Shown here piece by piece: positions 7,963 through 57,302 of a stretch of DNA of 64,000 bases (positions within the stretch are counted from its first letter, which is position 1; each line of letters starts with the position of its first letter). The notes under the pieces were generated by a model. It was given only the letters and a program-made list of their open reading frames with translations. It had not been told where the DNA came from and searched no databases. The translations under genes and the position numbers were made by a program. The stretch comes from Vermamoeba vermiformis (lineage: Eukaryota): assembly GCA_045837725.1 (NCBI GenBank), contig JBEWZL010000236.1:124001-188000 (forward strand). The letters run 5' to 3'.

Positions 7963-10326
7963 ATGTCCCAATATCGTCACTTCAGAGATTTGGCGCGGGT
8001 AGGACACGGCGCACTGTTGGTGTTTGAGCGTATTTTATCCAAGCCTGGCAGCCACAAAATAATTAAGCAAAATATTGCCATTAATTCAGCGCACAAACTA
8101 TTTCCTGATACAAATACGAAACAAGAAACAAAAATTCAGTTGGGTAGTACAGCACCATCCGCCTCTAGTCAGATCCCTTCAGCGACAAATACAACAATAT
8201 TCACTGAAAAATCGCCTATCCAACCACTCAATGATAAGCTGTCGGTGTCTTCAGTTGACACGCAGACAGATCGTGCCCGCACTAGAAATTTGGTAATACG
8301 TGTTGATACACACGAATGACTTCCGTCTAACACCATACTATATAGGAGCTCAATGGTGATGCCCGCGAACGAGCGGTGCCATCCACGCGCATTGGCCGAA
8401 TGTGGCATTTGGGAGGTCTCGCAGCTAGTGTTGGTGCAAGTCTCATGGGCCAGCGATTGAAGCGATCAGTGGGCCTGGGCAGCGATGCAGACCCTGCTGC
8501 TACATTCTTCAGCGAGTCTAATGCCAAGAAGTAAGTGCCCCAAGGCATTGGGTGGATCTGACCGATTATAGGTTGGCTGACACGTTGTCGCGACTGCGCG
8601 GAGCAGCCCTGAAACTCGGTCAAATGATCAGCATTCAAGGTACAGTTTGGGCCTATTATTAAACACGACGTATTGATTTGAGCAGATGAAAATTTGTTGC
8701 CACCACAATTCGCCGCGTTGCTGGAACGAATGCGCCAAGGAGCTGACTTTATGCCCTTCAAACAAGTCGAAGTAATACCATTATAATTGCATTCTCACAA
8801 TACAGGCTCAATGATATTGTAACAGAAAGTAATGACGAGTGCTTATGGAGAGGATTGGCGCGACAACTTTAAAGAGTTCAACGAGCGACCAATCGCAGCA
8901 GCATCAATAGGACAGGTACGCGGATTATAGTGTCGGTGTTATATAACACTCGTGTCAGGTACACAAAGCAGTGTTGAAGAGCGGTCAACAAGTGGCAGTT
9001 AAAGTGCAATATCCTGGTGTGGCCAAGAGCATTGACAGTGACTTGAATAACCTCGCGAGTTTGTTGTTGTTTTCAAATTTATTGCCACCAGGACTGTTCC
9101 TCGAAAAGACTATTGAGGTTGCTAAGAAAGAATTGGGCATGGAGACTAATTACGAGAACGAAGCAGCCAATCAAATCAAGTACAAAGAATTAGTTGCAAA
9201 TGGTATGCAAGCTGACTGGCAGTACTTTTGTTGATTATACTTAGAGAGGAGCTTCTACGTGCCTGTTGTCTTCAATGAGCTGACACGCCAGCAAGTGTTG
9301 GTGACTGAGTTTGTCTACGGTGAAAGCTTTGAAACAATCGTCAAAGAGACACAAGAAGTGCGCAATTGGGTTAGTAATCACGCATTGAACAGCATCATCG
9401 ATGTTAATCAGTTGTAGGTGGCTTACAAAGTACTAGAGTTGACATTCAAGGAGCTTTTTGAGTTTAAGTTTATGCAAACGGATCCAAACTGGTCCAACTT
9501 CTTTTTCAACCCTCTGAAGAAAGAGGTTTGTATGCAATTCATCTAAAACGAAGCTAATTTAAGTACAGATTATACTGCTAGATTTTGGAGGTTGTAGACA
9601 ATTCTCAACAGCTTTTGTCGATGATTACATTCGAGTCATTCATGGAGCAATCGTTGGCAACGACAAGGAGGTATTAGAAGCATCGCAGAGGTTGGGCTTT
9701 TTAACAGGAGAAGAGGACGCAGTCATGCAAAAGGTAACTACGAAGGATGGTGTCATTGCAGAAGTCGTCAAGCAAAATAACAAGGTTCCATGGTGTAGTT
9801 GGTTATCACATCTGCTTAACACGCAGTAGGTCCTCGGTTCGATTCCGAGTGGAACCATTTCTTTTTTGCTTTTCTTTTTGCTCACCCCCCTTCTGCACTT
9901 GTTTGCTTTTTATCGTGCCCCTCTCTGTATGACTTAAAAGTTTTGAATTAGGCTCACGTGGGTGTGGCCCGTATGTTGGGAACGCCGTTCAAAAAATCTC
10001 CTCATCCCTTCGACTTCGCCAACCAAAACGTATGTATACGTTGTACTCTGCTCGTTTAACACACTACGCACAGATTTCCAAGGAAGTAGTGTCACTCATT
10101 CCAACAATGAGTCAACATCGACTCGCACCACCACCCGAAGAAACATATACCCTTCACAGGTACAAATATTATTAGATTGGTCGTTCATGAGTGCTAACAC
10201 TTCTTTATCTACAGAAAGCTATCCGGTGCCTTTTCTATTTGTACAAAGTTGAAAGCCAAGATTCATTGCAGTGACATATTTTGGAATATTTACAACGAAT
10301 ACAAGTTTGCTAGCGGAGTGAAATAA
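7963..10326 (+). CDS. COQ8: COQ8/ABC1 (ADCK3/4) atypical kinase, mitochondrial
   Basis: [85 protein letters not shown]. Intron 9734-9951 hosts a tRNA gene. Confidence 0.93.
9740..9924 (+). repeat. tRNA-Val cassette, copy 1 (185 bp; near-identical to 12584-12767)
   Basis: Direct comparison shows identity except one C in a C-run (6 vs 5). Confidence 0.95.
9784..9857 (+). tRNA. tRNA-Val(AAC), within a COQ8 intron
   Basis: Acceptor stem GGTTCCA/TGGAACC plus A discriminator, A box TGGTGTAGTTGG, anticodon loop TTAACAC, T arm CTCGG-TTCGATT-CCGAG, followed by T-runs (Pol III terminator). U27.U43 is mismatched. Confidence 0.97.
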
Positions 10327-11558: not shown

Positions 11559-14061
11559 ATGACCGAAAAGAAGTCAATATTAGTGTTGTTTGGTTCCGAA
11601 ACAGGCAACTGCGAGTCCATCTCGAAACGCATCCACCAAGAAGCTTTAGGTTTAGGTTATGATAGCAAGTGGCATAAACTTAATGACTTTAAGAAGGTTC
11701 GTCAAAAGAAAAGAATTATTGGTGCTCTCATTTCCGAAAATATTGACAATTAAAATTTAATTAATTTCCGACCAGATCGGATTGGACACGAACCCTTGGC
11801 CGAACACAGTTATTATTGTAACCTCAAGCACTGGAAATGGAGATCCACCAGAGAACGGCGAGAAGTGAGTTCAACCGTAAATTTTATTAGCAGCTTTATT
11901 ATTAACAGCTTTCAACAGTTTTTGGTTGTTTATTGGTAAAAAGACTCATTCCAATACGATGCTTGCCAACGTTAGCTTCTCGATGCTCGGTAAGTGTCAA
12001 CGATCCGTTTGAGATCGCGTACTGAGACGGCTGGATCAGGTCTTGGCGACACCAATTACGACACTTATCAAGGCTTTCCGCGCAAGTTGTACAAGAGATT
12101 GCTTGAATTAGGAGCAAAACCATTCCAAGAGCGTTGTGAAGCGGATGAAGCAACGGGGTACGTTGAATGTTCTGCAGGTAGCACAATACTCAACCTTGCT
12201 TGCCAGACTGGAGGAGACAGTAGAGCCTTATGTTACTGAGTTGTGGTCCGCTTTAGAGACGCACTTTAAGTCGTTACAGAAACAAGTTGTTGAAGTGCCA
12301 CCCCAGCCAAAAGAAACGACAAACCCAGCCCCCGTCGAGAAGAAGAAAAGCAGCAAGCTAAAGGATATCATCAAAAAAAAGAAAGAAAAGGAAAAAGCTG
12401 AAGGAACTACTGAAAAGCCAGTGCTGGAGTCGGTGCAGGACCATTCCGTACCCAAACCTCCCTCGCAAACTTGCAAGGTCGTATTCACAGAAACGTACTC
12501 CAAAGAACTGCCCATGCATGCTACATTGGTAGAAGCAAGAAAATTGACTACACGAGAGGTAAGGAACTGAAATCAGTAATCGCACGAAGGATGGTGTCAT
12601 TGCAGAAGTCGTCAAGCAAAATAACAAGGTTCCATGGTGTAGTTGGTTATCACATCTGCTTAACACGCAGTAGGTCCTCGGTTCGATTCCGAGTGGAACC
12701 ATTTCTTTTTTGCTTTTCTTTTTGCTCACCCCCTTCTGCACTTGTTTGCTTTTTATCGTGCCCCTCTTTGTTGCTGACTCCAAACTTATTGTTAGGCGGT
12801 GAAGCAAGTGTGGGAAATGACACTTGATGTGGGTCGTGAGATCCGTTACAAAGTTGGTGATTCCATTGGAGTTGTATTTCCAAACAACGAAGAGGTCGTC
12901 GATAAGCTTATTGCCCACTTGAAACTTAATCCAGATGCTCTTTTGTCCATTGAGCCACTTGATGCCTCCGCAGACAAAAGTAAGTTCTCCGTGTGCCGAC
13001 CAGTACGTACTGACCCTCGCAACAGCGATCCTGCCTACTCATATTAAGACCCCGTGCTCTGTGCGTGAGGCATTTTTGCGCTACTGTGACATCCAAGCAC
13101 TTCCTTCCAAGCGGTTCTTGCGCATGCTAGCTGACTACAGCGCCGCGGAAGACAAAGAAAAGCTCATTCACATGTGCAGCACTAAGGGTCGCGATGACTA
13201 CGTGCAAGAGATTGAAGCAGCGCGTTTGACACTGCTGGAGCTCTTGGAACGATTCCCCAGCTGTCAACCACCCCTCGCGCACTTGTTTGACAGTTTGCCA
13301 CCACTCAAGCCCCGCTACTATTCCATCGCCAGCTCACCCCTCGTGCATCAACAACGCGCACACTTTGCATTTACTGTCGTTGATGTGCCCATTCCCAACA
13401 CATCGCGTCGCTGGAAGGGCACGTGTTCCAATTGGCTGGCGGAGCTGTGTGCCGTGAAGACGCAGTTCCCCAAACTGACCGTGCGTGTGCCGATATTTGC
13501 ACACCCCACCAAGGACTTTGTATTGCCTGCCAATCACGCCACGCCGATCATCATGGTTGGTCCTGGCACGGGTGTTGCGCCGTTCATTGGCTTCTTGGAA
13601 GAGCGACGTCAGATCCAGCAACAGCAGCCTGCGCACAAGTTGGGCGCGAGTTGGCTGTTCTTTGGCTGTCGACACCCCGACTACGACTACTTGTACCGCA
13701 CTCAGCTCGAGGAGTTTGAGCGTAACGGCACGCTCACTAAGCTCGTGACTGCATTCAGTCGCTTGGAGGAGAACAAGGTGGTCTATGTACAACATCGCTT
13801 GCAAGAGTATTCGAACGACATTTTGGATCTGATGCTCAATAACAACGCTCACTTCTACATCTGCGGGTATGTGACGCATTACGCATGAATTTTACCGCCG
13901 TACTAACGACAATTAGTGATGCAAGCGGAATGGCCAAGGCAGTCCGCGAGACTTTAGTGCAGATCCTCAAAGATCAAGGAGGCAAGAGTGAGAGCGAAGC
14001 ACACGACACAATCACGTCATGGAGTCAGGCTAAACGATTCGTTTTGGATATTTGGTCGTAA
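11559..14061 (+). CDS. MTRR: Diflavin (FMN/FAD/NADPH) oxidoreductase, methionine synthase reductase-like
   Basis: Flavodoxin motifs LFGSETGN, SSTGNGDPPEN and LGLGDTNY; PRYYSIASS; MVGPGTGVAPF; LFFGCR; YVQH; YICG|DA; C-terminal DIWS*. Intron 12559-12795 hosts a tRNA gene. Confidence 0.85.
12584..12767 (+). repeat. tRNA-Val cassette, copy 2 (184 bp)
   Basis: Near-identical to 9740-9924. Confidence 0.95.
12628..12701 (+). tRNA. tRNA-Val(AAC), within an MTRR intron
   Basis: Identical to the copy at 9784-9857, with a downstream T-run. Confidence 0.97.
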
Positions 14062-14130: not shown

Positions 14131-17100
14131 TTAAGACTTCTTTTCATTGAGTCCTTTTGGTGCTTCGGCTTTAAATAGCTCCGCGTGATCGAGCAGATAG
14201 TTCTCGCCCTTCTCTAGCAGCCAATTAACAGCCAGATCTGCTTTGTCTTGGTTGAGCGACAGAGCTTTGACGTAGAGTGCTAATGGGAAGCCAGGCACTA
14301 CGTCTTGCAAGCTCAGCGCACTCTCCCACCGCTTCACCTCCTTTTCATCGACTTTCTTCTCCTCAGGAGTGACAGGGGCGTCACTCGAGCTCAGTTCGAG
14401 CGGCGTGTTCGGATCCAGTGCCTGCAACTCTTTCTTCAACTCGTCGACGAGCTTCTGCAACTTGTCGAGGTGGCCAGGGCTCTTCGATTCCTTGGCCTCC
14501 TTGATCCACTGCTGGCACTGTTGCATGATCTCCAAGCGCTTCAATTTGAAGTGCGTCTTAGCCACCTCTTCAAAGCCCAGTGGTGGATTGCGGATCTGCT
14601 CCAGCATGGCCCAACGAATAGTCGCGAGACGAATTACCTCATTGTACTGACGGGACTGCTGCTCGCCCTTGGGTGTGTTCATAGAGGACTCGTAGCCTGG
14701 CTCGTTGAAGTAGGGCTTGTCGACCAAGATGAGCGACTGAATGGACACGAACACTTGCAGCAGCGTCGATGTGCTCTCGTTCCACTTCTCGTTCGGTCCT
14801 CCGCGCCACGTGCCAAGCAGCGACAGACACACCTTGCCGCAGTTGTACAAGTTGGGATTGAAGCGCACTGTGCCGTTACCCGTGGTCTGCAAGTTGATGA
14901 CGGGTGGTACGGCAGGGTATTCGGGCGGACAATAGACGTCAAATTCGAAGAAACCATTCATGTAGGGCGTGTCTTTGGGGCCTGTGATGACGCACTTGAG
15001 CACGTCCATGCGATCACTGTCCACGCGCAAGAAGACAGACGAGTCAGGGAAGAGCGGCAGACCAGTGCTGAGCGAGCCGACTTCTTGCACCAAGCGCTTC
15101 ATCTTCTTCGGGGCACTGCTCGTGTCACTCTTGATGCGTGACTTGTAGTGGTGTTTGTAGTCGCCGCTGTCGTCTTTCATGGAGAGCTCGTCGAACTGTA
15201 GCTCAGCAAGCTGTTCTTGATACAAGCGCGAGAACTCGAGCTCTTTCTCCTTGGCACTGTCGAGAGGTTGAGTGGTCGACTGCGCGGGCTGCAAGGGCTG
15301 TTTGTGCGCGACAGTCTTGGCTCTGTGATCGAGCACACGCTGTTTGACCAAGAGCTGTGTCTTGCTGATCTCAATGGCCAGTGTGATCTCGTCCTCTTCG
15401 CTCGACTGTTCTTTCTTCTGCGGCGTGCTGCTCTCCAAGCGACTCTTGGGCAGTCGTTTCAAGATGACATCTGCCATTGTGTGCAATTTGTGCAGCAGAT
15501 CGAACAGCGAGACCGACTGATTGGGCAGTTCATCAGCGAGATGCACCAGAGCGTCGTGCAGCACTAGTGCGCGTGTGGTCTTGAGCACAGCTGTGTAGAG
15601 ATCAAAGTGGCGACCCATGTCGAGCAGCGAGTCATTGCGCAAGTACGAGCCCAACACAGGCACGAGACTGCTCGCGGCAATGAGTTGATAGGCCTCGGTG
15701 CTGAGTGCTGGCTGTGCGTGCTCGAGGGGCTCAGCTGTGACCGCTAAGAAGCCCTGCACACCTTCCAGCAGTGTGGCAATCTTCTTGGCGAGGGCTGTCT
15801 GTTCTTTCACATACGCCTCGTGGCTCCACGTGACTGGTGCCGTGTCGTCTGCATTGGTGCCGTAGCCAGTGCCCTTCGCCCAGAACTTGCCGTCAGAGCC
15901 ATTCTGTGCCTTGGCTGCTTTGTCTTGACGGTCTTTTTGCCGTGACCTCCACTTGTCCACTGCCGCGCTGAATGCAGGGTGCTCGGGATCACGTGGTGCA
16001 GTGTCGCAGAAGTCGGTGAGCAGCGAGAGCAGTGCAGCGAGCACGCCTGCTTGCATCACTTCACTACGCACGCGCAGACTGTCCTCGGCCACGCTGTGCT
16101 GCGAGGTGCGCAAGAGATCAAACAGCGCGCTCAACAAGGGCTGCATGGGATTGGCCAGCAGTGCCTCGCTCGGTGTGGGTACTGCAGCGAGACCTAGTCG
16201 CTCGCTAATGTCGCGCACAGGACCAGTCTTGACGTCTTGTGCCTCAGTCATGACGCGGAACAGGAGGGCGCGGCAGTCACTGTCACGCACGAACATCTGC
16301 ACGAAGCCAGTCACTTGCAGCTCTTTGCGCAACAGTTGCAGCCACGTGCGCCACGTTGCAATGTCAGTCTCTTTGCTCTTGGTCTTGGCGTCACTCGGTG
16401 TGCTCGTGCTCTCTTTCTTCTGCAAGTGCGTGTCAATCATGTCCACGAGCTGGGCCAGACCTCCTTTGTCTGCAAATCTCTTCAGCACTGAGCCGACTTG
16501 ATCGCTCACGCCACTTGCGGTGGGTCGAATGGCACGCACACTGCTGCAAAGATTACTGTCAGTCGATGATTGGCTGCTATTTATAGCTTGAACTTACCGC
16601 TCATCGTCACGCTTGATGATCTCAATGTTGAGATCCACGAGTTCAGAGCCAGAGCCGACCAGACGATGCAAGTCAAGCATGGTGAGCTGTGACTGCAGCA
16701 CTGTGTCAGGCTGGCCAGGCAGTTGGAAGAGTGCCACCACGCCTTCAGGGTCCGTGGCGGTGAGGGACTCCGCGAGCTGTGCCAGAGTGGTGGTTGCGGG
16801 CACATTGAAGAGAGGAGCAGAGCGCTGATAAGTGAGGGGATTGGAGCTGTTCAGCTTGGTGGCCCACAACACGCCTTGCTTGGCCGTGGGACCTTCAATC
16901 TCCCTGAATCTCACGCGATCACCGACGTCGTAGAGCGAGACAGCGGGATAGAGTTCAAAGCCCGCGAGTCCCGTGCTGAATGCCACGCCGAGATCTTCAC
17001 CGTTGCGCGTGAAGGCCAGTGTGCCCTCGTCCATGTCGAGCGTGACACCGATCACATCGCCCTCCTTCATCTTCTGTCCGTACTGACTGTTGGACTTGCC

Positions 17101-20100
17101 GTCGTGGTACGTGTAGCCAGTGGTGGCACCGTAGTAGGACCAGCCCTTAGCGGTGTTGTTCTGTCCAATGTACGCATTCAACTTCTGATGGCGCTCGCAC
17201 ACACCGATCATGATGTTGGCGGTGCTCGTGCACTTCTCCAAGATCACTTCCCAGCGACGCATGCCACTCGTGATGGGCTTCTCAGCGAGCACGGTGCGCC
17301 AGCCAGTGGTGGCGAGGGTGTTGGCCGTGGCACCGAGCTGGTCCTCATCGAGATCGAGGTGCGGGTGACACAGCTTGCGATCGAGTCGGATCGGATCAGT
17401 GCGCGCAGTGGTGCTCGTGTCCAGCAGATTGAGCTCGTCGCTGCTGCCAGTGAGCGAGTGCAGACAGATGACAACGCGGTCCTCGAGTGAGAACATGTCC
17501 ACCATGAGCTGCAGCATGAACTCGCTGATCAGCTGCGCGCTGTTGGGCTGAGTGAGCTGAGTGAGCAGATAGGCTGCAATCATCTCCTGATTCTGCTCGT
17601 TGAGATTGGCGCACACGCGGAACACATCTTGAATGGCGTAGTGCACCTTGGAGCCAAAGTCCTTGCGACTGCACAGCTCAAACATGACGTCAAAGGCGTG
17701 CTTGCCGAGCCAGTGCTTGACCGTCTCGTTGTGACTGATGTCTGCAAAGAATGCCAGCGCTGCTTCGAGGAACTTTTGTGCCTCTTCAACACTGCTGCTC
17801 TTGTCGGCGTGCTGCGCGTACTCGGTGATGACACTCACAATGCGCGCGGGGATGCCAGTGTCGAGCAGACGAGTGGCACAGAGCGAGGAGGAGGAGGCGA
17901 GGATGCCGAGGGTGCGGAATGCGTTCTGATCGGGTCTGTTGCTACTCTGCGGCACCACGGCCTTGACCACCGCGGTCTCATTCATGCTGGCATTGAACTT
18001 GTTCAGCAGCACCTGTCACACGTGTCAGTATACAAAGTGTCACAGCTAGCGCGACAAGCATACCTGGAAGTACTCGGGCGTGGACTGAATCAGCGAGGAC
18101 AAGAGCCGCAGCGAGCCCTGTTGCATGAGCGAGCCCTCGAGGGAGTTGATCGCGCAGTTGAATAGCAGCTCAATCTGCGCCTCCGTCACCACACACTGCA
18201 CGGCGAGTCCCTTGCGCTGATAGCTGCTGATGGCGTCGGAGAGTGCATTCAAGAACGGCATCAAGTGCGAGCTGAGTGAGGTGGCTGTGTGATTGGCCAG
18301 TTCGCGGAACACAAAGTCGCGCAGACGGTTGAGTCGGTTGACCGTGTCCGCATCGCCCAGTCCGCACAATCGGCCCGCGAGTGCCGCGTGACAGGTGGTC
18401 TGGCCAGTGAGCAGCTGTTGCAGCAGCTTGTCACTCAGCTCGACGTCGTACTTGGCGAGGTGCGAGAGAATGTTCTGCACGGCCTGACTGGTCTTGGTGG
18501 TCAATATTTGCAGCAAGAAGAGTGCAAAGGTCTGCGTCTCTTTCTGCTGCGCCAAGAACTGCTGCACGAGATCGTGTCGGACGCAGTGTTCGAGCAGCTC
18601 TAGACTGGCACTGAGCGGCAGTTGTGCGGTGAGGAGCGGATCTTCACCCTCCTCCTTGGCGTTGTAGAGCAGACTGCTGTGCCCGAGCAGTTGAATGCGC
18701 GACAGTGCAATCCAGGCAGACTTGTTGGGACACTGCAAGTGCATGCGAATGAACTTGACCACTTCAATGCCGGGCAGCGGCAGCTTGAATGTGGAGGTGT
18801 ACTTGGTGTTGGGATTGGGCTGCAGGGCACTGGGCTTGCAGGGGAATCGACCCACCGGCAGCAGACGTGACAGCGAGGTGCCCGTCTCGACGGTGATGAA
18901 GGGCGGGAAGCGTGACGTGGAGTTGTAGTTGTTGATGCAGTCGATGCGTATCTCGCGCAGTATGACGTTGTCGGGGATGGCAATGGTCATGCTGAACTTG
19001 TCTTCGTCCACCTCCTTGCTGCGCTTGAAGTTGTAGGTCCAGATGCACGAGGACACAATGACACTCTCCTTCAACAGTCGTGCCAGCAGCTTGTCTTGCT
19101 TGGGCTCCAACAGCTCGCTCACGTGCGACAGATTCTCGAGCTTGTCACCGCTCTTCACTGGACGTGTCACATCTGTCAAGCGTGTCAGTCACTGGACAGT
19201 ACGTTGACACGTGTCATTCGCACAATTGTTTCACGTGTCAAATCGAATACTTACTGGCAGGGTTGTTCTTCTTGCTGTGCGAGAGAATGTTTGCAAAGGC
19301 AGGAGCGAGGAATGAAGAGCGGGCCCGCGAATTGGAGCTCTTGATCTGATCGAACAAGAACTTGTAGCCCTCGAGCTCCACGATCAGATAGTGCGCCAGT
19401 TCTTCGTTGCGCACCAGTGTCAAGCAGAGCTCGGCGATGGACACCGAGGTGGGCTTGGTCCGCAGCACAGTGAGACAGAGCTCGAGGAAGTGTTTGGCCC
19501 CGTCATTCTCGGTGGACAAGATCTTGATCAGCCGCACAATGCTCTTGCTGAGATCGAACTTGGTGGCCGTGGGCAGTGTGGCCGATGAGACCGAGGCGGT
19601 GACAGGTGCAGCGTTGCTCGAGCTGAGTGTGCTGGACGAGGAGGCGAGTGTGCTGGTGGAGGTGCTGAGCAGTGCCGTGCTGGACGAGGCAGTGAGTGCC
19701 GTGCTGGCCACGCTCTTGTCACTCTGCTCCATGTTGCTCAGCCACTGAATGAACAGCGTCGTGAAGGCCTTGTCGCGCTTCTGTTTGTTCGCGAGGTCCA
19801 ACAGCCGCGCACGATCAGCGGCGGTGAATGTGGGTGCAGTGAACACCGTGTTGAGCACATCGAGCACCACTTGCAGCAGTCGATTGCCCTTGGACGAGGC
19901 ACCGTGCACAGCGAGGGCGAGTGAGTCTGGCAGTTCAGCCGCGAGTTCTTGCAGCAGTGCGAAGAGGTGTTCAATCTTGTAGTGCACGGCTGCAGTGAAG
20001 TGTTCGCGCATCACTTCGAGCAGACGCAAGTAGAGCAGTGTGTGCGTGTCGTAGTGCACTTGCGGGAATGTCACCACGAGCTCACCCATCAATTCGCTCT

Positions 20101-23100
20101 GCAGCACCTCGCCCAGCCCTTCAGTGGCGAGCAGCTTGGAGGCTAGTTGCACAAAGTCGTCGAGCAGCAGCACTTGCAGCTCTTCAGGGGCCAGAATTGC
20201 CTCGCGGAACACCGAGAGCAGGGCGGGCAGGCGACAGAGTTGTTTGGGGTCCACCGAGTGCAGCAGTCGCAGCACCATGCACCAGGGCCGTGCTGCAGCT
20301 GAGGCAGTGAGCGGATTGTCGCGCGACAGATAGTGCAGCAGATAGGCAGCAATCTCATCCAGGGCGTAGTCTTCAGTCTCGTCGTCAGTGCGCGAGGTCT
20401 TGCGTACAATGACAGGCGAGGCACTCTCAGGCTCATCGGTGGCTGTGGCGGCACTCTGCGACGAGGCAGCACTGGACGAGGGCGCGGGACTGGCCTCACT
20501 CGTGCTGCCCTTGCTGCTCAGCTCTTTCTCGTACGTGATCACGAGCAGCAGTTCGAGCAAGAAGTCGGCACTGAAGTTCTTGTTGTCGTTGCTCAACAGC
20601 AGCTTGATGGCCTTGGAGCGCAGCAGAGCTCTGATGCGACGAATGGCCTGCGCACTCTCTTTGCCGCCGCTGTAGGTCTCAATGTTGCACAACTTCTCCA
20701 CCATCTGCAGCACCGCAGAGCGAATGAATGTGCTCGGGTAGGACGAGACTTGGCGCAAGAATTCGTCGAATTTGGGGTGTTTGAACACGTCCTCGTAGAT
20801 GTCATCGGGTGTGTACTGATTGGTCAGTCCTTCGAGCACACGCATGGCCAGCAAGAACAGCTCGGGACTGAGGGGCTGCATGCGCGCACTGAGCGAGATG
20901 ACGGAGAAGATTGAGCGCAAGTGTCGTCCATCGAACACCGAGCCGGCAGCGTGCGTGACGTCAGTGGGCTCGTTGATGAACTTGGTGATGTCTGCAGCTG
21001 AGGAGCGGAGTGACTTGCCACTCGAGACACTCAAGCTGCTGGACGCGAGCTGATCGGTGTCTTTCTTCATCTTGGAGGCATCGGTGACACTCTTGGACAG
21101 CTTGGTGAAGGACTGCGAGGACTGCGACTTGAACTGCGAGAACGGATAGAAGCCGCGGTGCAGCAGCACGGGGATGAGGGCCTTGGGGTTCTCAGTGGTG
21201 GCCCCGGACGGCACGGGTCTTCTGATCTTCAAGAACAGATGCAGCGGATAGTGCTCGACCTTGCCCTCGCATGTCTCGCAGAAGTTGAACTCGTCGCAGT
21301 GCACGCACTTGTAGCGAATGCCTTTGATCGGTGTCTTGCCGCAGCCATCGCACGACACTCCTGTGTGCGTGTAGCCGTCTTGTTCGTCGAGTGAAGCAGG
21401 TGAGACGGAGGTCGAGTCCTCTGTGTACATGAGTGGCAAGAGCGGGTCTTTGGGTGGGGGCATGCCGCGGAATGACGAGGGCGGCAAGGGCAGTGCGGTG
21501 GGGATCTTCAAGAACAGGTGGCTCTTGTTGTGTGCCGTCGAGTCACTCTCGCACTGCTCGCACAGATCGTAGTCCAGACAGTTGACGCAGCGATAGCGCA
21601 CACCGCAGATCGGCGACATGTTGCAGTTGCGACACTTGGAGCCCTGGTGGACTGGCGCTTTGTCGGGAGTGAGCGACATGGTGTTGGAGAGCAGCAAGAG
21701 CACCCACGAGACGAGTGCGACGTCAATGTTGCTGACATTGGTGGCTGCAGTGAGTTCTTCGAGCATGGAGAAGAGATCGTCCACGTAGAAGAAGCGCAGT
21801 CTGTCCTGACCCATGATATCTTGCAGCGTGTCGAACACTTCCTGTTGCGGGAACAAGTTGATGGGACGCGTGTACTCGGGATTGGAGCAGAAGAACTTGC
21901 GCAGCGTATTGGAGGGGAATGAGACCTGCGAGCCGAGCTGGTGCATCAAGAACCGCGCTGCTTCACGTCTGAGCGTGGGTGTGCCGTAGACACAGAAGTG
22001 CGTGAAGAGATCTTGCAGCATGGCCTCTTCGTGCTCGAACTCGTCATTCTGCTGATTCAGACACTGGAACAGCCGCTCAGCTGCACTCTGTTGCATGGTT
22101 ATAATTAATTATTGTTATATTATATAATCAGACTAAATACGTACAGTCCAGCGATCGAGGCGATTGTCCGTTGAAGACACAATGTTCTCGTTCGGCTTCA
22201 ATGCCTGCAAGTGTTTGCGCACGCGGTGGAACATGATCTGCGCACTGATGCAGTCGTTGTAGGCCTTGTTGACATCTTTCTCGTGACTCGCGAACAGATC
22301 TCCGCTGATGTTGATCTCCTCCAACATGGTAGTCAGGGTGCGTCGCTTCGAAGCGAATTCGAGCGAGTAGATGTGCAGCTGTTGCTCGAGTGCTTCAGCG
22401 GACTGACCGAGCGGCTCTTCAGCCTTCTTCTGCTTGTCTGAACGGCTCGGTGTCTCAAACAAATCGAGTTCGAGTGGATAGCCGTAGAGTCCAAAGTGCG
22501 TGCGCAACAGATTGTAGAAGGGTGAGCGTGCTTCAAACAGCTTGTGTCCGAGATTGAGCAGTATTTTGACTGCGCGGGCATGGGCCTTGACTCGATCAGC
22601 GTCCCAACAGAGATAGAGCATGGCGAAGAGCTGATTCATGCCGCCAGGGGTGCGACAGTGATCGAAGGCGTGCGTCAAGACATCGAGCGAGGCAATGAGC
22701 AGCGACTTCTTGTACTGCTCTTGTCCTACGTGCACTGCGTACATGAGCACACGACCTGCTTTGAGGGCAGTAGCTTTGTCAGCACCAACAATGTTGATGC
22801 GAATGAAGACCTCCAAGTTGATGGCCTCGAGAATGCTCAACATCTTGTCTGAGGCGCGCTTCCACACATCGAGCAGCAGATCCAAGCACTGATGACGCAA
22901 TCCAACGCTGGTCTTCAAGTCCTCGCAGGCCTTGATGAGGGACAAGTAGAACGGGGTGGATTCGAACAGCGAGTGACGCAGCGCACGTATCTCGCTCAAG
23001 CTCTTGCCTTCAATCGGCTTGAGACTCGCGAACTTGACGGCGAGTGAATTCACGCTGTTGGGACTGGGCTTGCTGCTGGCCCCGCTGTAGAGCTCACCGT

Positions 23101-27195: not shown

Positions 27196-28545
27196 ATGAA
27201 CGACAACAATAATCAAGGCACGCCTGCCGCGCCTAATCAAGGGCCGTTCTTTGGCTCGCAGCAGTGGTACCCAAACGAGGCGGCCATTATACAACAGCTA
27301 GCTGGTAAAGCTGGACCTTATGTCTTGTATCCTCTCATACGTTAATATTTATACAACGACCTTTCACTCACGGTATTATCCTTAATTCCTCTTTAGCACG
27401 TCAGATGGAACCGCCATCCACTCCCCAGAAATAAATCTTACAGATCCCAACAATATTATCGGAGAAGTCAAAAAAAGAGGTAATTAACGCTAATTTCATA
27501 GGTAATAATTAATTGCAACATTATCAGACGATGACTCCGATAAACCAAACTCGCTCGATGATGAAGGCTCGGCACCACTCTCGCATGAAAATGTTAATAT
27601 GGAAGATGGCACACCACGACGAGGCAAAAAGAGGCAAGTAAAAGTTGTCAGTTGCGCGATCGATTAATTCTTAATTTTGGAATTATTTACGAAAAACGCC
27701 AAAAAAATATATTATGGTTGTTTGGTGCATTAATCGTAACTACAAATTTATGGGTATACGGACAGTACTGTATTAAGGTTATCACGTGGCGACGACTAAT
27801 CACGTGACTAACTGATCGCATCTCGAATAGGGCCGCGGAATCATCAGGCAATTGGGACGATACAACAAAAGTACGTCGACAGAGTCATAATGTAGCAGAG
27901 AAGCGACGAAGAGACAAAATTAACGACAAGATCAAAGAGCTGAAGCAGCTGTTGCCGAAGAGCGACAACGACATGAGCAAGGCCCTGAACAAGTCGTACA
28001 CCCTCGAACAGGCCATTGATTACATTCGCAAGCTAGAGCAGCAGAACAACTCCCTCTGGGAACAACAACAACTGCTGCAAGAAGAGAACAGGTACTTGAA
28101 GCTGTTGCGCGCGACGTACAATCTCGACGACGGACTCGACAAGTCCAAAGAGCTCGAAGCACAGTTGTTGGGGACCAGTGCCCCGCTCAAGACCAGCTTC
28201 AGCGCCATGCAAGTACCCATCGCAGTGCAAGTCAACAACACTGGCTCGCCTACCAACTCGCGGCCTGGCTCTTCAATGCTGGTCTGGACCACGCCGTTCA
28301 ACAACAACTTTGCCGCGCAAGTAAACTCACCGATGGTCAAGTCGAATGGCGCTGCACCTGCCGCTCAAATGTTCACTGCTGATCCGAACTTCCCTTTCAA
28401 TACTGCCAACATGAATGCGCTGCGGCAATCTAATCCAATGATGCAAATGAACGTCGTCAACCCGAATATGCCAGGCTCACCCAAGTCTAACGCTAATGTA
28501 AATATAATTTTCGACTCTCCGCCAAAATCGAACTCGACGGAATAA
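27196..28545 (+). CDS. bHLH-leucine-zipper transcription factor (USF/MITF/Max-like class B)
   Basis: RRQSHNVAEKRRRDKINDKIKELKQLLP...KSYTLEQAIDYIRKLEQQNNSL followed by a zipper. Confidence 0.88.
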
Positions 28546-28643
28546 ATGTATATTTAATCTTCAACTGATACCACAACCACAATTCAAATGATCAATTAGG
28601 TCCACTCACTAAGTTTATTGTACATTCATGATTCTAATGACAA

Positions 28644-29680
28644 ATGAAGCGTCAACGAGATGAAGCAGAGCAAGATAATCGTGAGTACTCTCCTACACGG
28701 TCATTCAAAAATAATCGGCAAGTTGTAATCAATTAATATTTAGGCGATAATATTAAAAAGGTACGTCAATCAATTTTAGGATTTTCCAACAATTATCGCA
28801 AAAAACACTTCCTGACCCGATCCAGCCGAAACTGAACTCGTTATCGCTTTCAACCCGATTGCGATCCATTGTGTCATTCGTACGACCCAATAGCACTGTA
28901 GCTGATGTGGCTTGTCATCATGCGCACGTTGCGGTGCACTTGGCTCTGAACCAGATCGCAAAGCGTGTAATAGGCACGGAACTCACTGAGGGCTCGTGGC
29001 AAGTAGCACGCGATACAGTGAACAAACATCAAGTGCAGCACTGCGTAGATATTCGTTTGGGAGACGGTAGGATCCAATCCAAGATGATTTCAACGCTGGC
29101 TTCAGTCTCACACTTGTCATGCAGGACTCACGCCCGTTCACGCACACGAAGTTGATACTGTTATAATTGCTGGTGTAGGCACCGCACTCGCAGTGCAAAT
29201 ACTCAAACAACGTCCTCAAGTTGTAGAGCATGTCAAGCAGTTGATTTTACAACCACAGTTTGAGTGCGAAGAAATGCGTCGCTACTTGCACTCGATCAAC
29301 TTTAAAATCACAGGTATTGTTTGAGATCTGATCGTCTGTTTCAGTGAACTAATTGCCTGCTAGATGAAAAGATGATCGCTGAGAATAATCAATACTACAC
29401 TATCATAGTCGCAGAACCTGGTATTGAGTCATACAATAGCGAAGAGGACTACAAGCACGGACAATTGTTGTTACTCCGATCAGATCCAGTAATGGTGCAA
29501 TGGTGGGAGAACAAACTCGCCAAATTACTCAAGAACATAGCAGCTATTGAAAGCAATCTCTCGGGCGACAAAAGTGACAATGCTAGCAACAAACTCGCGG
29601 AGTTACAGGCGGAAGTAAACACGTACAAGGATCTGATCCAAAAACACACAACAGCACGAAATAATACGAACAAGCAGTGA
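28644..29680 (+). CDS. trmK: tRNA (adenine22-N1)-methyltransferase, bacterial TrmK-like
   Basis: LSTRLRSIVSFV...VADVACHHAHV...IGTELTEG...IRLGDG|LTPV..HEVDTVIIAGVG...LILQP...EKMIAENNQYYTIIVAE, with a C-terminal coiled-coil pair. Four introns. Confidence 0.88.
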
Positions 29681-29839
29681 CGTGCAGAGCATTTTCTCTG
29701 TAAAACAATAAAATGGAGTAAAATTCGGAATTCCTGCTTGGGCAACAAAATTTCTGTTCTTCGAGTCTTGTGAATTCAGTCGACGAGCGGCGATAAAAAG
29801 GCTTTGTTCGCTCGAACGCTCCAATCAACAACACACACG

Positions 29840-30708
29840 ATGCCTCAAGAAGAACAACTCAACCATACTTTCAAGTGAGTACCCCTTTGCTTGACCTTAA
29901 GTCATTGCTAACAGGATCGTGATGCAGGCACAGCTGGCAAGATGTCTTCCTTGCAAGCTGGAAAAAATATCCTTCACCAAAACGACCAGAAGTTTTGTCG
30001 GTAGATATTATCGAAAAGAAGTTTAACCCCGAGGATAACACTCTAAAAACTAAACGCTTGATGATCCTTGAATCCACCCTCCCCAAATGGTTGAACTCAA
30101 TGGTAATTATCCGAATAATTATAACTCGATAGAGTGATTTTCCGACAAACTCCGGTTGAAAAAAAGCAAGAAGACGAATTATTATTTATTAATGAAAAAT
30201 TTGAATGCGCAACGTTAATCTTTTTTATGCAACAGTTTGGCTTGGGCAACAGAGCAGTTTTTTTGGAAGAATCAGTGATTGATCTTAAGAACAAAACAAT
30301 GACTTTGGCCTCACAAAATGTCACTTTTAACAGTCTTATCAAGATGGAGGAAACTTGCACGTACACAATTGATAAAGAGAACGAGAACTGGTAAGTTTAT
30401 TAATATTTATTATTTTAGTAAACACCTCGCCAAAATATTTAAAACAAATCATTTTCAATTATCGGATCTAATTGCTCTACTTCTGCAGGACAAACTTGAA
30501 GCAAGTCGCTAAAGCTACAGCGTACACCTTTACCTTGGCAAGCACCATTGAGAATCTGATTGTTTCTAAGTTCAAGACCAATGCTGCGCAAGGTCGCGAG
30601 ATTATGGAAGCCGCGATTGATTTGGTGCAAAACGAACAGCTGAATGCTCAACGAACATTAGTCGAGCAAGGATTCTTACCCGCGGATATGTTGCCAAACA
30701 CCAACTAG
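29840..30708 (+). CDS. PRELI/MSF1 (Ups2/PRELID3-like) mitochondrial lipid transfer protein
   Basis: HTFK|HSWQDVFLASWKKYPSPKRPEVLSVD...EESVID...MEETCTY...FKTNAAQGREIME. Confidence 0.88.
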
Positions 30709-54023: not shown

Positions 54024-57000
54024 ATGGGCTCCCAAACAACTGCACGAGCCGTCAAGCGGCTTATGAAGGATCTCAAGGAGATACGCGAGCACCCACTTCA
54101 GGATGTCGCCGCATCTCCTTTGGAAGACAATTTGCTCGTTTGGCACGTAAATTGTAAGTCCTATTATTCCTATTACGCACGTTCCTAGGCTAATTATGAC
54201 CTTAGTACGTGCTCCTGGCGCTATGTTAGGCGGTGCAGTTTTTCACTTGGTGATCGAGTTCTCAGCTGACTACCCAGCCGTAGCTCCTCAAGTCAACTTG
54301 TGCACTCCGCTGCCACATCCGAACGTGTTCCCAAACAAATACGGTAAAGATAACTATATTTGTTTGGACATGCTCGATGCCCAAGGTGCGTTTTCTGCAG
54401 AGGATCAGAAGAATAGACCCTACACTGGCTGGTCCTCGGGCTATTCAATGCTTTCGTTGCTTTTGCAGCTTCAAGGTATGCGAGGAATTCCCTTAATTTT
54501 AGCAGACTAGGTGCTAATTCTATTCTTTAGCATTTTTGCTCGACGAGACGATGCGCAAGGCGAATACTAATGCTGCCGTTGCTGCCGCTAAGACATTCGA
54601 ATGCAAGTCATGCCCGCACAAACGAAATCAGATTTGGCCGACATTCCCCTCAAATGCTGAGCTGAAAATTCGTCACAAGCACGTCATCAAGCCTGTGTGG
54701 CCCAAAGTCCCCAAGCGAATGATCGCTCCATCAGTCGAGTCTGGAAAACCTCAATTAACTTCAGTCGTGTTACGTAAGAGCGACTTGGAGAAGATGAAGG
54801 TCGCTCAGGCTGTCAACAACCCCATCAAGAAAGCTCTCGCTCCTGTTGAGGACGGTTGGTTCGAAATCAAGCACGGCAAGTCCATCAAGGCCAAAGCCAC
54901 TGCGGTTGCAAAGACAGTCGAGCCGGTTCAGTCAAAATTGAGCGCCGCATGGGTCGGTACGGTCAATGGTGCTCTTGTCGTCAAAATCCCGTCTGCTGTG
55001 GAGAGTTCATTATTATTGAACAAAGTTGAGCTGCAACCGGTAGTGAAGCAAGCACAGCCTCAATTCGTCGACGAGTCCCGCTTGAGTCCTGCCGAAGTCA
55101 TCAAAGCCATCAAAGAGTCGGACTTGGACGAAGCTGCAAAGGCCCGCAAGATCAAGAACTTCAAGAAGAAATTGTCTCGCAAGCGCACCGACAAGTCCTC
55201 TTCTGAACCTGTGCAGGAGCAGGCAGAGACCAAGCAACCTGCGAACAAGCCTCAAAGTCCTAGCAAGGCCGATCCAGCTCCCGTTCAGAGCGCTCAAGTT
55301 CCCGTTGAACCGCCTGCCGCTGAAGTGCAAGTCAAGAAAGCAGAGGCACCCAAGCCCAAGTATGACCCTCACCTTTGCTTGGGCGATTTGGCTGTTCTGC
55401 CATATGAAGTGATGCTGCACATGCTCGAGTACTTGTCCCCGAGTGACGTCTTGAGCGTGTCGAGCACCTGCACTGAAATGCGATCAATGAGCAACGACGG
55501 TTTCTTATGGCGCAATCTGTTCTCACGTCAATATCCGTCATCGCACTTGACAGCAGAGAACATGCACGACTGGAAGTACGTGTTTGAATTGGAGGTCAAT
55601 CGCATCGCGCAAGAAATGGTCTGCTTCCACACCAAGAACGACTTTGAAGAGGACGTGCTCGGTATTCCCATCGAATTCACCGTCAATCCTCGCACAGAGC
55701 GCATCGACTACATCTACAGCTCAATGGATTTGTTGTCCTCGGAGGCTTTCTTTGAGCACAAAGTGCGCAAGACAGTTTGGAAAGAAGAGTTCACCAACTG
55801 GTTGCCACTTTACATCAATCAAGATCACTTCGAGCGCGCAATTCCTTACATTGAAAAGACTTTGGTAAGTACTTGAAAACATTGATTAATCCCTAATCAA
55901 TTGCTAACCTTGTCAATAGCTTCGTCTTTCTCCTCATTGGCGCACACAACGATTCGTGCCGACAATGGCCCTCGAAGTGATACCGAAGTTGATGAACACT
56001 ATGATTGTGTTGATCTCCGACAAAGGTATTCACGCTTCTGAGAAAGCTATTGACGGTTACTGTCAATTACACCGCTTGATGATGGCCATGATTGAGCGCT
56101 ATCCTGCTTTGCAACGATATGTCAACGAACAGATTGCCGGCTTCATATTGGACGAGTCAAAGCGTCATAAGGACGTGGTGCCATCATTGGGCGATTTCTT
56201 GCCTTTGATCTCAGTCAGCACCAAGTACGACTGGCTATCAGTAGCCGGTGCTGTGCTGACCGAGAACTTTGACCGCAACGTCATTTGGATTTGCAAACAA
56301 TTCCCCGAGCTCGCAAAGATCGCCATTGAACAGGGATCTATGACAAAAGATCAATGGGACAAGGCGCAGAAGGCACAAGACATCGAGCGGTTGAACAATA
56401 GCTACGAAGCAAGTCACGTGAGCCAGCGATTGATTATGTTCCACGCCTACTTCTTGAGCCACATTGCTCGCCCTGCCAACACGCCCATTGACGTCATCGC
56501 TTACAACTACGATCGCTACTATGGCAAGCCCTCTTGGTCCACCAAAAAGAAGTTCCAACAGTTCATCAAGCGTGTCTCGACAGTTACCAAGTGGTCACAA
56601 TTCTTCCAATGCTTGGGATTGAAATACTTCGGTGACGAATCAATGACTGAACGCCTGAAGATGGCCGTGAAGAATTCTTTGCGCAAGCGATACCACAAGA
56701 ACAACACTGACTTCACGCGCATTCACAGCTCGGGCGTGTCGAAGATTTTGTTGCGCGGTGAGTCGTACACGGCTTCCCCCACTCTGCAGAGTGTCTTGCT
56801 CGAGGAAGTATGGCACTATCCCGAGCATGTCAAATTCTTAGACGCATCGTGCTTGTGCTACAACAGCCAAGGCAAGTTTGTCGAAGTCTTAGACTGGTGT
56901 CACAAGTCTAGCGGTCCCGCTGGAGCTGGTGCCATTACACACAGCGGTGATGTCATCGATCGCGAAAAGAAAGAAGGCAAGCACACCATCAACCTCGATC

Positions 57001-57302
57001 TCAACAAACTGAAGCCCGAGATCACCTCAATGTTCTTCACTATCTCGGCTTACACGACCACTTTGAAGGAGATTCTACAGCCTTACATCCGCTTCACTGA
57101 CAAGGTGACCAATATGGAGCTGTGTCGCTACCAACTCGACGAAAAGGCTGGTGACTACACCGCTGTCATCATGTGCAAGTTGTATCGCAAAAATGCTGGC
57201 GACAAGCAATGGCACGTTGATGCTATTGGTCAGTTGGGCGAAGGTCGCGCCAGCGACTACGGTCCTATTCAAGAGAAAATCAACAAGCTCTTGAAAAAAT
57301 AA
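54024..57302 (+). CDS. Ubiquitin-conjugating (E2) domain - F-box - helical domain - TerD domain fusion protein
   Basis: UBC KRLMKDLKEI...WHVN...YPAVAP...HPNV...ICLDML; F-box LAVLPYEVMLHMLEYLSPSDVLSVSSTC...LWRNL; TerD LDASCL...ITHSGD...INLDLNKL...FFTIS. Confidence 0.85.

Follow-up and report, generated by a model that had tools for sequence, protein, structure and literature searches.

The window analysed here is a stretch of 64,000 nucleotides from the free-living amoeba Vermamoeba vermiformis (contig JBEWZL010000236.1, positions 124,001 to 188,000), and the gene under study, at 28644-29680 on the forward strand (+) of the window, encodes a homologue of the bacterial tRNA methyltransferase TrmK. 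In bacteria this protein, also named YqfN (COG2384, Pfam family PF04816), is the tRNA (adenine22-N1)-methyltransferase, represented by structures from Bacillus subtilis (6Q56), Staphylococcus aureus (7O4M) and Streptococcus pneumoniae (3KU1). The core reading of the locus, that a bacterial TrmK has been domesticated in a eukaryote and carries a new leader resembling a nuclear localisation signal (NLS), is well supported.

Spliced by coordinates, the gene has five exons which join into a reading frame of 801 nt (266 codons and a TGA stop), separated by four introns of 63, 65, 58 and 50 nt, all of the GT..AG type. Exon 1 (28644-28680 (+), 37 nt) contains the start codon as well as the leader's first basic cluster (M-K-R-Q-R-D...) and is followed by intron 1 (28681-28743 (+), GTGAGT..TAG), the 17-nt micro-exon 2 (28744-28760 (+)), which codes for the last part of the acidic spacer and for the K-K that opens the second basic cluster, and intron 2 (28761-28825 (+), GTACGT..CAG). 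Exon 3 (28826-29066 (+)) encodes the P-K of the leader, the LSxRL motif, the Arg of which corresponds to R9 of the B. subtilis enzyme (BsTrmK), then motif I, the Glu of motif II and G-D-G. Within it the codons for A-C-H-H-A-H (residues 47-52) lie at 28910-28927 (+), where the bacterial counterpart reads G-[TCS]-D-H-[AG]-Y and His49 occupies the position of BsTrmK D29. Intron 3 (29067-29124 (+), GTAGGA..CAG) sits at the same position in the metagenomic contigs L001-L003 described below, and leads to exon 4 (29125-29313 (+)), which encodes I-A-G-V-G-T (I-A-G-M-G-G in bacteria), L-I-L-Q-P-Q and the central Rossmann strands, with the codons of V116 and T118 at 29175-29177 and 29181-29183 (+). Beyond intron 4 (29314-29363 (+), GTATTG..TAG), exon 5 (29364-29680 (+)) supplies the last two strands, a C-terminal coiled-coil hairpin, a variable tail and the TGA at 29678-29680.

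Evidence for splicing came from public sequencing runs, X1, X2 and X5 as contigs and X24 as raw RNA reads, aligned to positions 28300-30100 of the window. Contigs of X1 and X2, which lack intron 1, join position 28681 to 28824 without a single mismatch and with 14 letters in between, and these letters reproduce the 17-nt micro-exon exactly once the ambiguous G and AG at its flanks are counted in; intron 2 is placed by the sequence and by the same spliced contigs. Intron 3 is skipped in X1 and X5, and intron 4 is missing from the contigs of both these runs and from a single raw RNA read of X24; X2 also contains unspliced pieces across introns 3 and 4. All four introns are therefore spliced out in contigs of public runs, both small 5' exons included, and the coordinates, exon sizes and intron number given in an earlier sequence-only reading of this DNA, made without database searches, proved exact. 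Transcripts of the gene are thus spliced correctly, but their level is low: its word depth of ~2-15, far below the ~20-140 of the PRELI-like gene downstream, makes expression look low, and X24 covers it with only a handful of reads, 90-99% alike. X24 carries the same species label as the window, yet none of its 60 reads aligned here is at least 99% alike (19 are 95-99% and 41 are 90-95% alike), so the label covers clearly diverged strains or species. The 5' untranslated region extends at least over 28571-28643 (+), as record 2 of the X1 contigs begins at 28571 and enters exon 1 with 0 mismatches. Inside this transcribed region the sequence also holds the start of a short, out-of-frame upstream open reading frame (ATG at 28628, TGA at 28663 (+)) that overlaps the TrmK start codon at 28644 and could dampen TrmK translation.

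The gene model is confirmed by the mRNA of a relative. A 267-aa V. vermiformis transcript protein in EukProt (P0001), the sole match when exon 3 was searched against longer proteins, aligns with the spliced window model at 215 identical columns of 267 and without gaps at every exon junction, micro-exons included. Two exon-sized fragments (P0086 and P0093) appeared in a search of representative proteins at 71% and 80% identity, and run into intron sequence at the same junctions; the 90% cluster of P0086 holds a full-length protein, P0235 (260 aa), and fragments of open reading frames (ORFs) on contigs of up to 608 kb, and P0093, from a 79,861-bp contig, has a cluster to itself. Three metagenome contigs from different records (L001-L003) are identical over a 1015-nt gene that begins with exons of 37 and 17 nt, is interrupted at the four positions known from the window by introns of 66, 69, 51 and 57 nt, and keeps the bHLH-TrmK-PRELI order of the window; they look like one uncultured Vermamoeba-like organism seen three times. 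The four orthologues (window, P0001, P0235 and L001) are 73-82% identical in pairwise comparison, and these relatives place the window in a small clade of Vermamoeba-like amoebae (Amoebozoa, Tubulinea, Echinamoebida). Between the window and L001, with 189 of 257 aligned residues identical, the nonsynonymous and synonymous divergences (dN and dS, NG86) are 0.159 and 1.84, a ratio of 0.087 (0.13 with YN00). The TrmK gene is thus kept in place in four lineages, and with a dN/dS of ~0.09-0.13 in this comparison it is under strong purifying selection.

Family assignment, fold and active site

Searched one by one against PF04816, for which the gathering cut-off is 27 bits, the three large exons match in collinear order and each above the cut-off: exon 3 over profile positions 1-56 of 205 (E 1.1e-08, 35.3 bits), exon 4 over 63-120 (E 9.9e-13, 48.5 bits) and exon 5 over 122-202 of 205 (E 3.4e-08, 33.7 bits). 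These matches are far beyond chance, and P0001 scores 141.3 bits over profile positions 1-201. The full-length collinear similarity to TrmK proposed in the sequence-only reading, which had named the Pfam model as its own check, is thus borne out over positions 1-202, and the motifs that it listed (LSxRL, GDGL, IAGxG, LILQP and ACHHA in place of G-S-D-H-A) are all present. The exons match the generic family PF12847 equally well, but as PF12847 is annotated on all 85 hits of a word-based protein search it does not discriminate; NCBIfam searches with single exons returned no TrmK model below E 0.004 and are uninformative for such short pieces.

A structure was modelled with AlphaFold2 from a 100-row alignment for P0001, the 81%-identical relative, rather than for the spliced protein of the window. 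The model has a mean predicted local distance difference test score (pLDDT) of 93.8 and a predicted TM score of 0.87, with lower values only in the first 20 residues (pLDDT 61-70) and the tail, and places helices 203-226 and 233-261 as a C-terminal coiled-coil hairpin after the Rossmann methyltransferase domain. Foldseek ranks 1-8 are eight TrmK chains from seven PDB entries (3GNL with two chains, 3KR9, 6Q56, 3KU1, 3LEC, 7O4O and 6QE6) at E 7e-23 to 6e-17 and target-normalised TM scores of 0.80-0.91, before rank 9 falls to E 4e-9. The relative's protein is therefore predicted with high confidence to fold as TrmK, as a Rossmann catalytic domain with a coiled-coil hairpin, and 40 of 71 columns in the C-terminal region are invariant among the four orthologues.

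The amoebal protein thus shares with bacterial TrmK full-length collinear homology (sequence matches to PDB entries at E 6e-25 to 3e-9), the predicted two-domain fold, the Arg of LSxRL, the acidic residue of motif II, G-D-G and L-Q-P-Q. It differs in being nuclear-encoded with four introns, in its 20-residue basic-acidic-basic leader, which is absent from the aligned bacterial homologues, in reading A-C-H-H-A-H for G-x-D-H-A-Y and I-A-G-V-G-T for I-A-G-M-G-G, and in being at most 43% identical to any bacterial protein found. Eukaryotes possess other enzymes that likewise use S-adenosylmethionine (SAM) to methylate N1 of purines in the tRNA core, be it in the nucleus, the cytosol or the mitochondria, Trm6/Trm61 (1-methyladenosine, m1A, at position 58) and the Trm10-type enzymes (m1A or 1-methylguanosine at position 9), but these are unrelated to the amoebal TrmK in architecture and target position, and the homology searches that we ran turned up no sequence similarity to them. 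Differences in structure and organisation among TrmI, TrmK and TRMT10C are also described in a 2024 review (PMC10882958).

For the active site, residues were numbered through a HMMER alignment to 6Q56 that is ungapped over chain residues 1-102, so that BsTrmK residue n is residue n+20 of P0001 and of the window protein, and residue counts were taken from a MAFFT alignment of 337 other homologues with the four orthologues. The SAM-contact residues Arg29 (= R9) and Asp98 (= D78) are present in all four orthologues, and in the BsTrmK study, from which the mutant data below also come, R9A is reported as inactive and D78A as nearly inactive (PMC6511850). The acidic residue of motif II is Glu70 (D in 310 and E in 27 of the others). 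Around these retained contacts a set of nearly invariant positions has changed in all four orthologues: position 47 is Ala (G 331, A 5 and C 1 among the 337 others), position 49 (= D29) is His (D 335, G 1 and H 1, the last from Thecamoeba), position 116 (= M96) is Val (M 316, V 8, I 7, L 6) and position 118 is Thr (G 313, T 0), joined by Gly at position 68 (A 319, G 12) and His at position 52 (Y 244, H 11). Two hallmarks of TrmK are accordingly replaced throughout the amoebal clade, the Met equivalent to M96 by Val116 and the Asp of G-x-D-H by His49. The ACHHA of the sequence-only reading was correct, but it understated the change in the active site, as M116V, G118T and A68G depart as well. 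We read the pattern as a pocket remodelled in a coordinated and conserved way, with the main cofactor contacts kept.

How far such changes would alter function can be gauged from mutants of the bacterial enzyme. M96A of BsTrmK is nearly inactive (PMC6511850). D29 is described as the only conserved candidate for a general base, yet D29A has reduced activity and is still active, and m1A formation is argued to require no general base, a point discussed also for TrmI and Trm10 (PMC6511850). The activity kept by D29A means that D49H lowers the case for functional equivalence but does not exclude it, and, as m1A formation would need no general base, the exchange of Asp for His need not abolish activity. 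The alterations at nearly invariant pocket residues, on the other hand, make a changed substrate a live possibility.

Probable bacterial ancestry and distribution in Amoebozoa

The closest named relatives of the protein are bacterial. A search of representative proteins gave 7802 hits with E up to 1e-3, and identities were judged on the best 150 of these: 148 were 27-42% identical, most of them 220-250 aa long, the remaining two being the clade's own exon fragments P0086 and P0093, so that among these 150 an identity above 50% was found only within the four-member amoebal clade. A word-based search added 84 non-self hits at 27-43% identity, among which every name given by a source was bacterial (Clostridia, Tissierella, Coprococcus, Epulopiscium, Ammoniphilus, Oceanobacillus, Allobacillus). 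In a scan of one genome per prokaryote species, 500 of 589 pattern matches were confirmed as relatives, and the best 80 of these 500, at 28-39% identity, carried Bacillota-type titles with a single exception from Haloplasmataceae; the nearest ESM Atlas clusters were 100% Bacteria. As the named relatives are all bacterial and mostly from Bacillota, transfer from a bacterium is the best reading. The horizontal acquisition suggested by the sequence-only reading is supported by these bacterial relatives, none of them above 43% identity, and by the position of the clade inside a group of Bacillota-type rows in the quick tree described next.

Two trees were made. The FastTree tree contained 321 rows (the 4 from eukaryotes, the 80 species loci and those 237 hits that were 190-320 aa long, shorter and longer ones having been dropped) and united the four eukaryote rows in one clade (support 100) on a stem of 0.88, with a sister that lacked support. 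The IQ-TREE quick tree, under a site-mixture model, was built from 80 rows (45 of the 80 species loci together with 30 chosen hits and 5 rows derived from eukaryotes) and placed the amoebal clade (support 100, stem 1.09) inside a 46-row group of Lachnospiraceae, Vallitalea and allies with a support of 96 in the Shimodaira-Hasegawa-like approximate likelihood ratio test (SH-aLRT), leaving Bacilli, Peptococcaceae, Negativicutes, Tissierellia and Thermotaleaceae outside. The donor was most likely a Clostridia-like member of Bacillota. A Haloplasmataceae-like sister, seen in FastTree with support 0, was not recovered with the mixture model. We also considered, as a possible donor, a small bacterial-type group with A-T-D-H-C for G-x-D-H-A (P0006, P0009, P0013, P0015 and P0016), which demonstrates that Ala at the first glycine of motif I occurs naturally outside the amoebal clade, but it was rejected as sister: three of its members (P0006, P0013 and P0016) stand beside P0091 in the quick tree and the five are not sister to the clade in FastTree. 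There was no sign of a viral intermediate among 170 pattern matches in viral contigs, where just two TrmK loci were found. These two homologues, on IMG/VR contigs L084 (3001-3813) and L085 (2077-2889), are both only 29% identical to P0001, and are probably phage-borne or prophage-adjacent bacterial copies, no closer to the amoebae than bacteria are.

One further homologue comes from an amoebozoan data set. P0130, a transcript protein of Thecamoeba quadrilineata (Discosea; EukProt EP01103), is the only one of the 337 other homologues with His at the BsTrmK D29 position (G-S-H-H). It shares with the Vermamoeba-like proteins this Asp-to-His change and the want of any close bacterial match, but differs from them in being 33% identical to P0001, in starting without the N-terminal leader and in being known from a transcript alone; it keeps Gly47, Met116 and Gly118, and its best other matches are bacterial, at 38-40%. 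In the quick tree, P0130 and two unnamed proteins form a weakly supported 7-row cluster with the amoebal clade (SH-aLRT 83), and the approximately unbiased (AU) test did not reject the Vermamoeba-like rows and Thecamoeba as one clade (p-AU 0.459, log-likelihood difference 1.49), a weak test in that this five-row group was chosen after the tree had been seen. P0130 could stem from a single old acquisition by Amoebozoa, from two acquisitions followed by convergence, or from contamination of the transcriptome. In the most far-reaching version, TrmK would have entered Amoebozoa once, before Tubulinea and Discosea split, and become a eukaryote-specific RNA methyltransferase through the shared Asp-to-His change, with the Vermamoeba lineage going further through its pocket changes and NLS-bearing leader, to a target or chemistry unlike bacterial m1A22. 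We regard that scenario as speculative and give it little credence; if true, it would describe a previously unrecognised eukaryotic RNA modification enzyme.

Putative nuclear leader, candidate substrates and competing explanations

The leader comprises 20 residues of basic-acidic-basic character and is encoded by the two micro-exons (37 and 17 nt) and the start of exon 3; bacterial homologues start at or just ahead of LSxRL. Its M-K-R-Q-R-D start and the K-K-P-[KR] within residues 16-20 are invariant in all four orthologues, and the acidic spacer between them varies, with KR + 12 + KKPR in P0235 and KR + 13 + KKP[KR] in the window, P0001 and L001. The classical bipartite NLS consists of KR and K-K/R-x-K/R clusters with 10-12 residues between them. 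With its conserved basic clusters and free spacer the leader resembles the bipartite pattern, and KKPK also fits the short monopartite one. It may act as a bipartite-type NLS, in keeping with the sequence-only reading, which had recognised the two small 5' exons and their KR...KKPK and whose two basic clusters turn out to be conserved in four of four orthologues.

Candidate substrates are constrained by what bacterial TrmK needs, an A22 that faces a purine at position 13 in a tRNA whose L shape is intact (PMC6511850, PMC9801127). The window contains two identical tRNA-Val(AAC) genes, at 9784-9857 and 12628-12701 (+), 2.8 kb apart, and since both have U13 opposite U22 they cannot be TrmK substrates; the U22 that the sequence-only reading had seen in the local tRNA-Val holds for both genes. 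An apposition of purine 13 with A22 is frequent in eukaryotic class II tRNAs, so candidate substrates should exist elsewhere.

Put together, our fullest explanation is that an ancestor of the small Vermamoeba-like clade took up the gene of a TrmK-family SAM-dependent methyltransferase from a bacterium, most likely of the Bacillota, and that this has since become an ordinary nuclear gene with four introns, a host-like GC content and a fixed place between the bHLH and PRELI genes. The new leader would direct the enzyme to the nucleus, where it would bind SAM through the retained Arg29, Glu70 and Asp98, dock on the elbow and D-arm of tRNA like bacterial TrmK and methylate A22 at N1 in those nuclear-encoded tRNAs that oppose it with a purine at position 13, with His49 assuming the non-essential role of the bacterial Asp. 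Taken as a whole, from acquisition and domestication to nuclear import, SAM binding and A22 methylation, we consider this chain evenly poised between right and wrong. Several points weigh against it. The tree is unrooted, with support for the sister of the clade at 0 (FastTree) and 83 (quick tree), and together with the long stem this lets the donor be narrowed down no further than to Clostridia-like Bacillota. Both the donor and, strictly, the direction of transfer rest on taxonomic distribution, in that TrmK occurs in thousands of bacterial lineages and in a single small clade of amoebozoans. The RNA label of X1, X2 and X5 is a guess, their spliced joints being what suggests complementary DNA. 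The only tRNA genes of the window have U22, and the 13-residue spacer of the leader in three of the four orthologues is one above the classical range. Finally, G47A, D49H, M116V and G118T fall at nearly invariant positions in every orthologue, A68G and Y52H being further changes, and a pocket so remodelled may bind a different target or cofactor.

As to origin, the alternatives fare poorly. The bacterial affinity of the protein is the only thing that speaks for bacterial contamination or a chimeric assembly, and the chance of it is negligible: splicing of all four introns is seen in transcript-like contigs, an independent metagenomic orthologue has its introns in the same positions and the bHLH and PRELI genes on either side, the GC content around the gene (0.453) matches the rest of the window and the bacterial proteins found are all at most 43% identical. 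Spliced joints, conserved introns and synteny rule it out, as the sequence-only reading had argued from the introns and the flanking genes. Vertical inheritance within an old, widespread eukaryotic methyltransferase family, with no transfer at all, could draw on the second amoebozoan homologue, from Thecamoeba, and on a joint clade that the AU test did not reject, but we hold it to be very unlikely. Relatives above 50% identity are confined to the amoebal clade itself among the best hits, only two EukProt proteins came up in three word-based searches, and the Thecamoeba protein is no closer than the bacterial ones; the grouping with a widespread eukaryotic family that the sequence-only reading had set as its own refutation did not appear. 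The literature points the same way, two sources stating that TrmK has no equivalent in Eukarya (PMC2425500) and none in Eukarya or Archaea (the 2024 review, PMC10882958). Among titles and abstract beginnings of papers on TrmK with eukaryotes, gene transfer or amoebae, we found no report of a eukaryotic TrmK, supplementary tables of horizontal gene transfer in amoeba genomes, which may list the gene, being outside that scope.

Function is where the explanations compete more closely. A descendant of TrmK with a rebuilt pocket may have been neofunctionalised to methylate something other than A22 of tRNA, such as another nucleotide or base (for example N1 of guanine, where a proton-accepting residue matters), another nuclear RNA or another tRNA position, an alternative that we think unlikely but take seriously. 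The changes cluster at nearly invariant SAM and target-site positions in four of four orthologues under purifying selection, the sole other His among 337 homologues is amoebozoan as well, which hints at a eukaryote-specific requirement, and the new leader suggests a new compartment. Against this, the two-domain architecture is kept and conserved, down to the coiled-coil hairpin by which bacterial TrmK holds the elbow of the tRNA (40 of 71 C-terminal columns are invariant), as are Arg29, Glu70 and Asp98; the D29A mutant of BsTrmK is still active, and Ala47 and Val116 also occur in five and eight of the other homologues. The loss of the M96 equivalent, of the motif I Gly and of the Asp could point to a catalytically dead pseudo-enzyme kept as an RNA-binding or chaperone protein; this is quite improbable in our view, as the SAM-contact Arg and Asp and the acidic residue of motif II are conserved, and the replacements (Val, Ala, His) are conservative in shape and themselves invariant in the clade. 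Improbable, too, is a mitochondrial enzyme acting on bacterial-like mitochondrial tRNAs, with the leader as an organellar targeting peptide. Mitochondrial tRNAs are of bacterial descent and modification enzymes of bacterial type are often organellar, but presequences of other eukaryotes are acid-poor and amphipathic, and the first 20 residues here hold five acidic ones and two short basic clusters, which argues against a mitochondrial presequence.

Under the preferred explanation of transfer and domestication, the finding is a variant TrmK in an unexpected domain of life, at odds with review-level statements of its absence from Eukarya. A free-living amoeba lineage has kept a TrmK descendant under selection over a divergence at which synonymous sites are near saturation. 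This leaves two options: m1A22 may be present in the tRNAs of some eukaryotes, or a tRNA enzyme of bacterial origin may have been adapted to a new task in the nucleus. TrmK is discussed as an antibacterial target partly because mammals are without it (PMC9190014). With its four introns, two leader micro-exons and coordinated pocket substitutions the gene would offer a clean and datable example of domestication, and as Vermamoeba is culturable the question can be addressed by experiment. Its wider importance is limited, as amoebae commonly carry bacterial genes and the clade is small. Several tRNA nucleotidyltransferases have reportedly been found in Acanthamoeba (PMC7947759), likewise a case of non-canonical tRNA maturation enzymes in an amoebozoan, but in a different enzyme family.

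Neighbouring genes and other features of the window

The upstream neighbour, at 27808-28545 (+), is the last exon or ORF of a bHLH transcription-factor gene (PF00010 HLH, 57.5 bits), which has a 77% identical counterpart at the corresponding position of L001 and L002. Downstream, at 29840-30098 (+), lies the start of the PRELI-like gene (PF04707 PRELI, 45.9 bits), syntenic in L001-L003, with exon 1 at 29840-29874, a 53-nt intron at 29875-29927 and exon 2 from 29928 (+); all four runs lack this intron, among them X24 with 18 raw RNA reads. The flanking genes are thus eukaryotic, as had been stated from the sequence, the downstream one with a spliced intron of its own. Other ORFs of the window encode ZZ, F5/8-C, RRM, protein-kinase, UQ_con, SPRY, F-box-like, TerD and malic-enzyme domains. 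The value of 0.453 given above for GC content refers to positions 28001-30000, within a range of 0.411-0.585 across the window.

Two further features were seen at some distance from the gene. A series of very long ORFs of 820, 473, 380 and 956 aa, in which UQ_con, SPRY and ZZ domains are found, occupies 14131-22108 (-) and has a GC content of 0.54-0.585, against 0.41-0.52 in the remaining window. A 460-aa ORF with a TerD domain (76.3 bits), which is most familiar from stress and tellurite-resistance proteins of bacteria, is found at 55920-57302 (+), adjoining the F-box-like ORF at 54518-55876.

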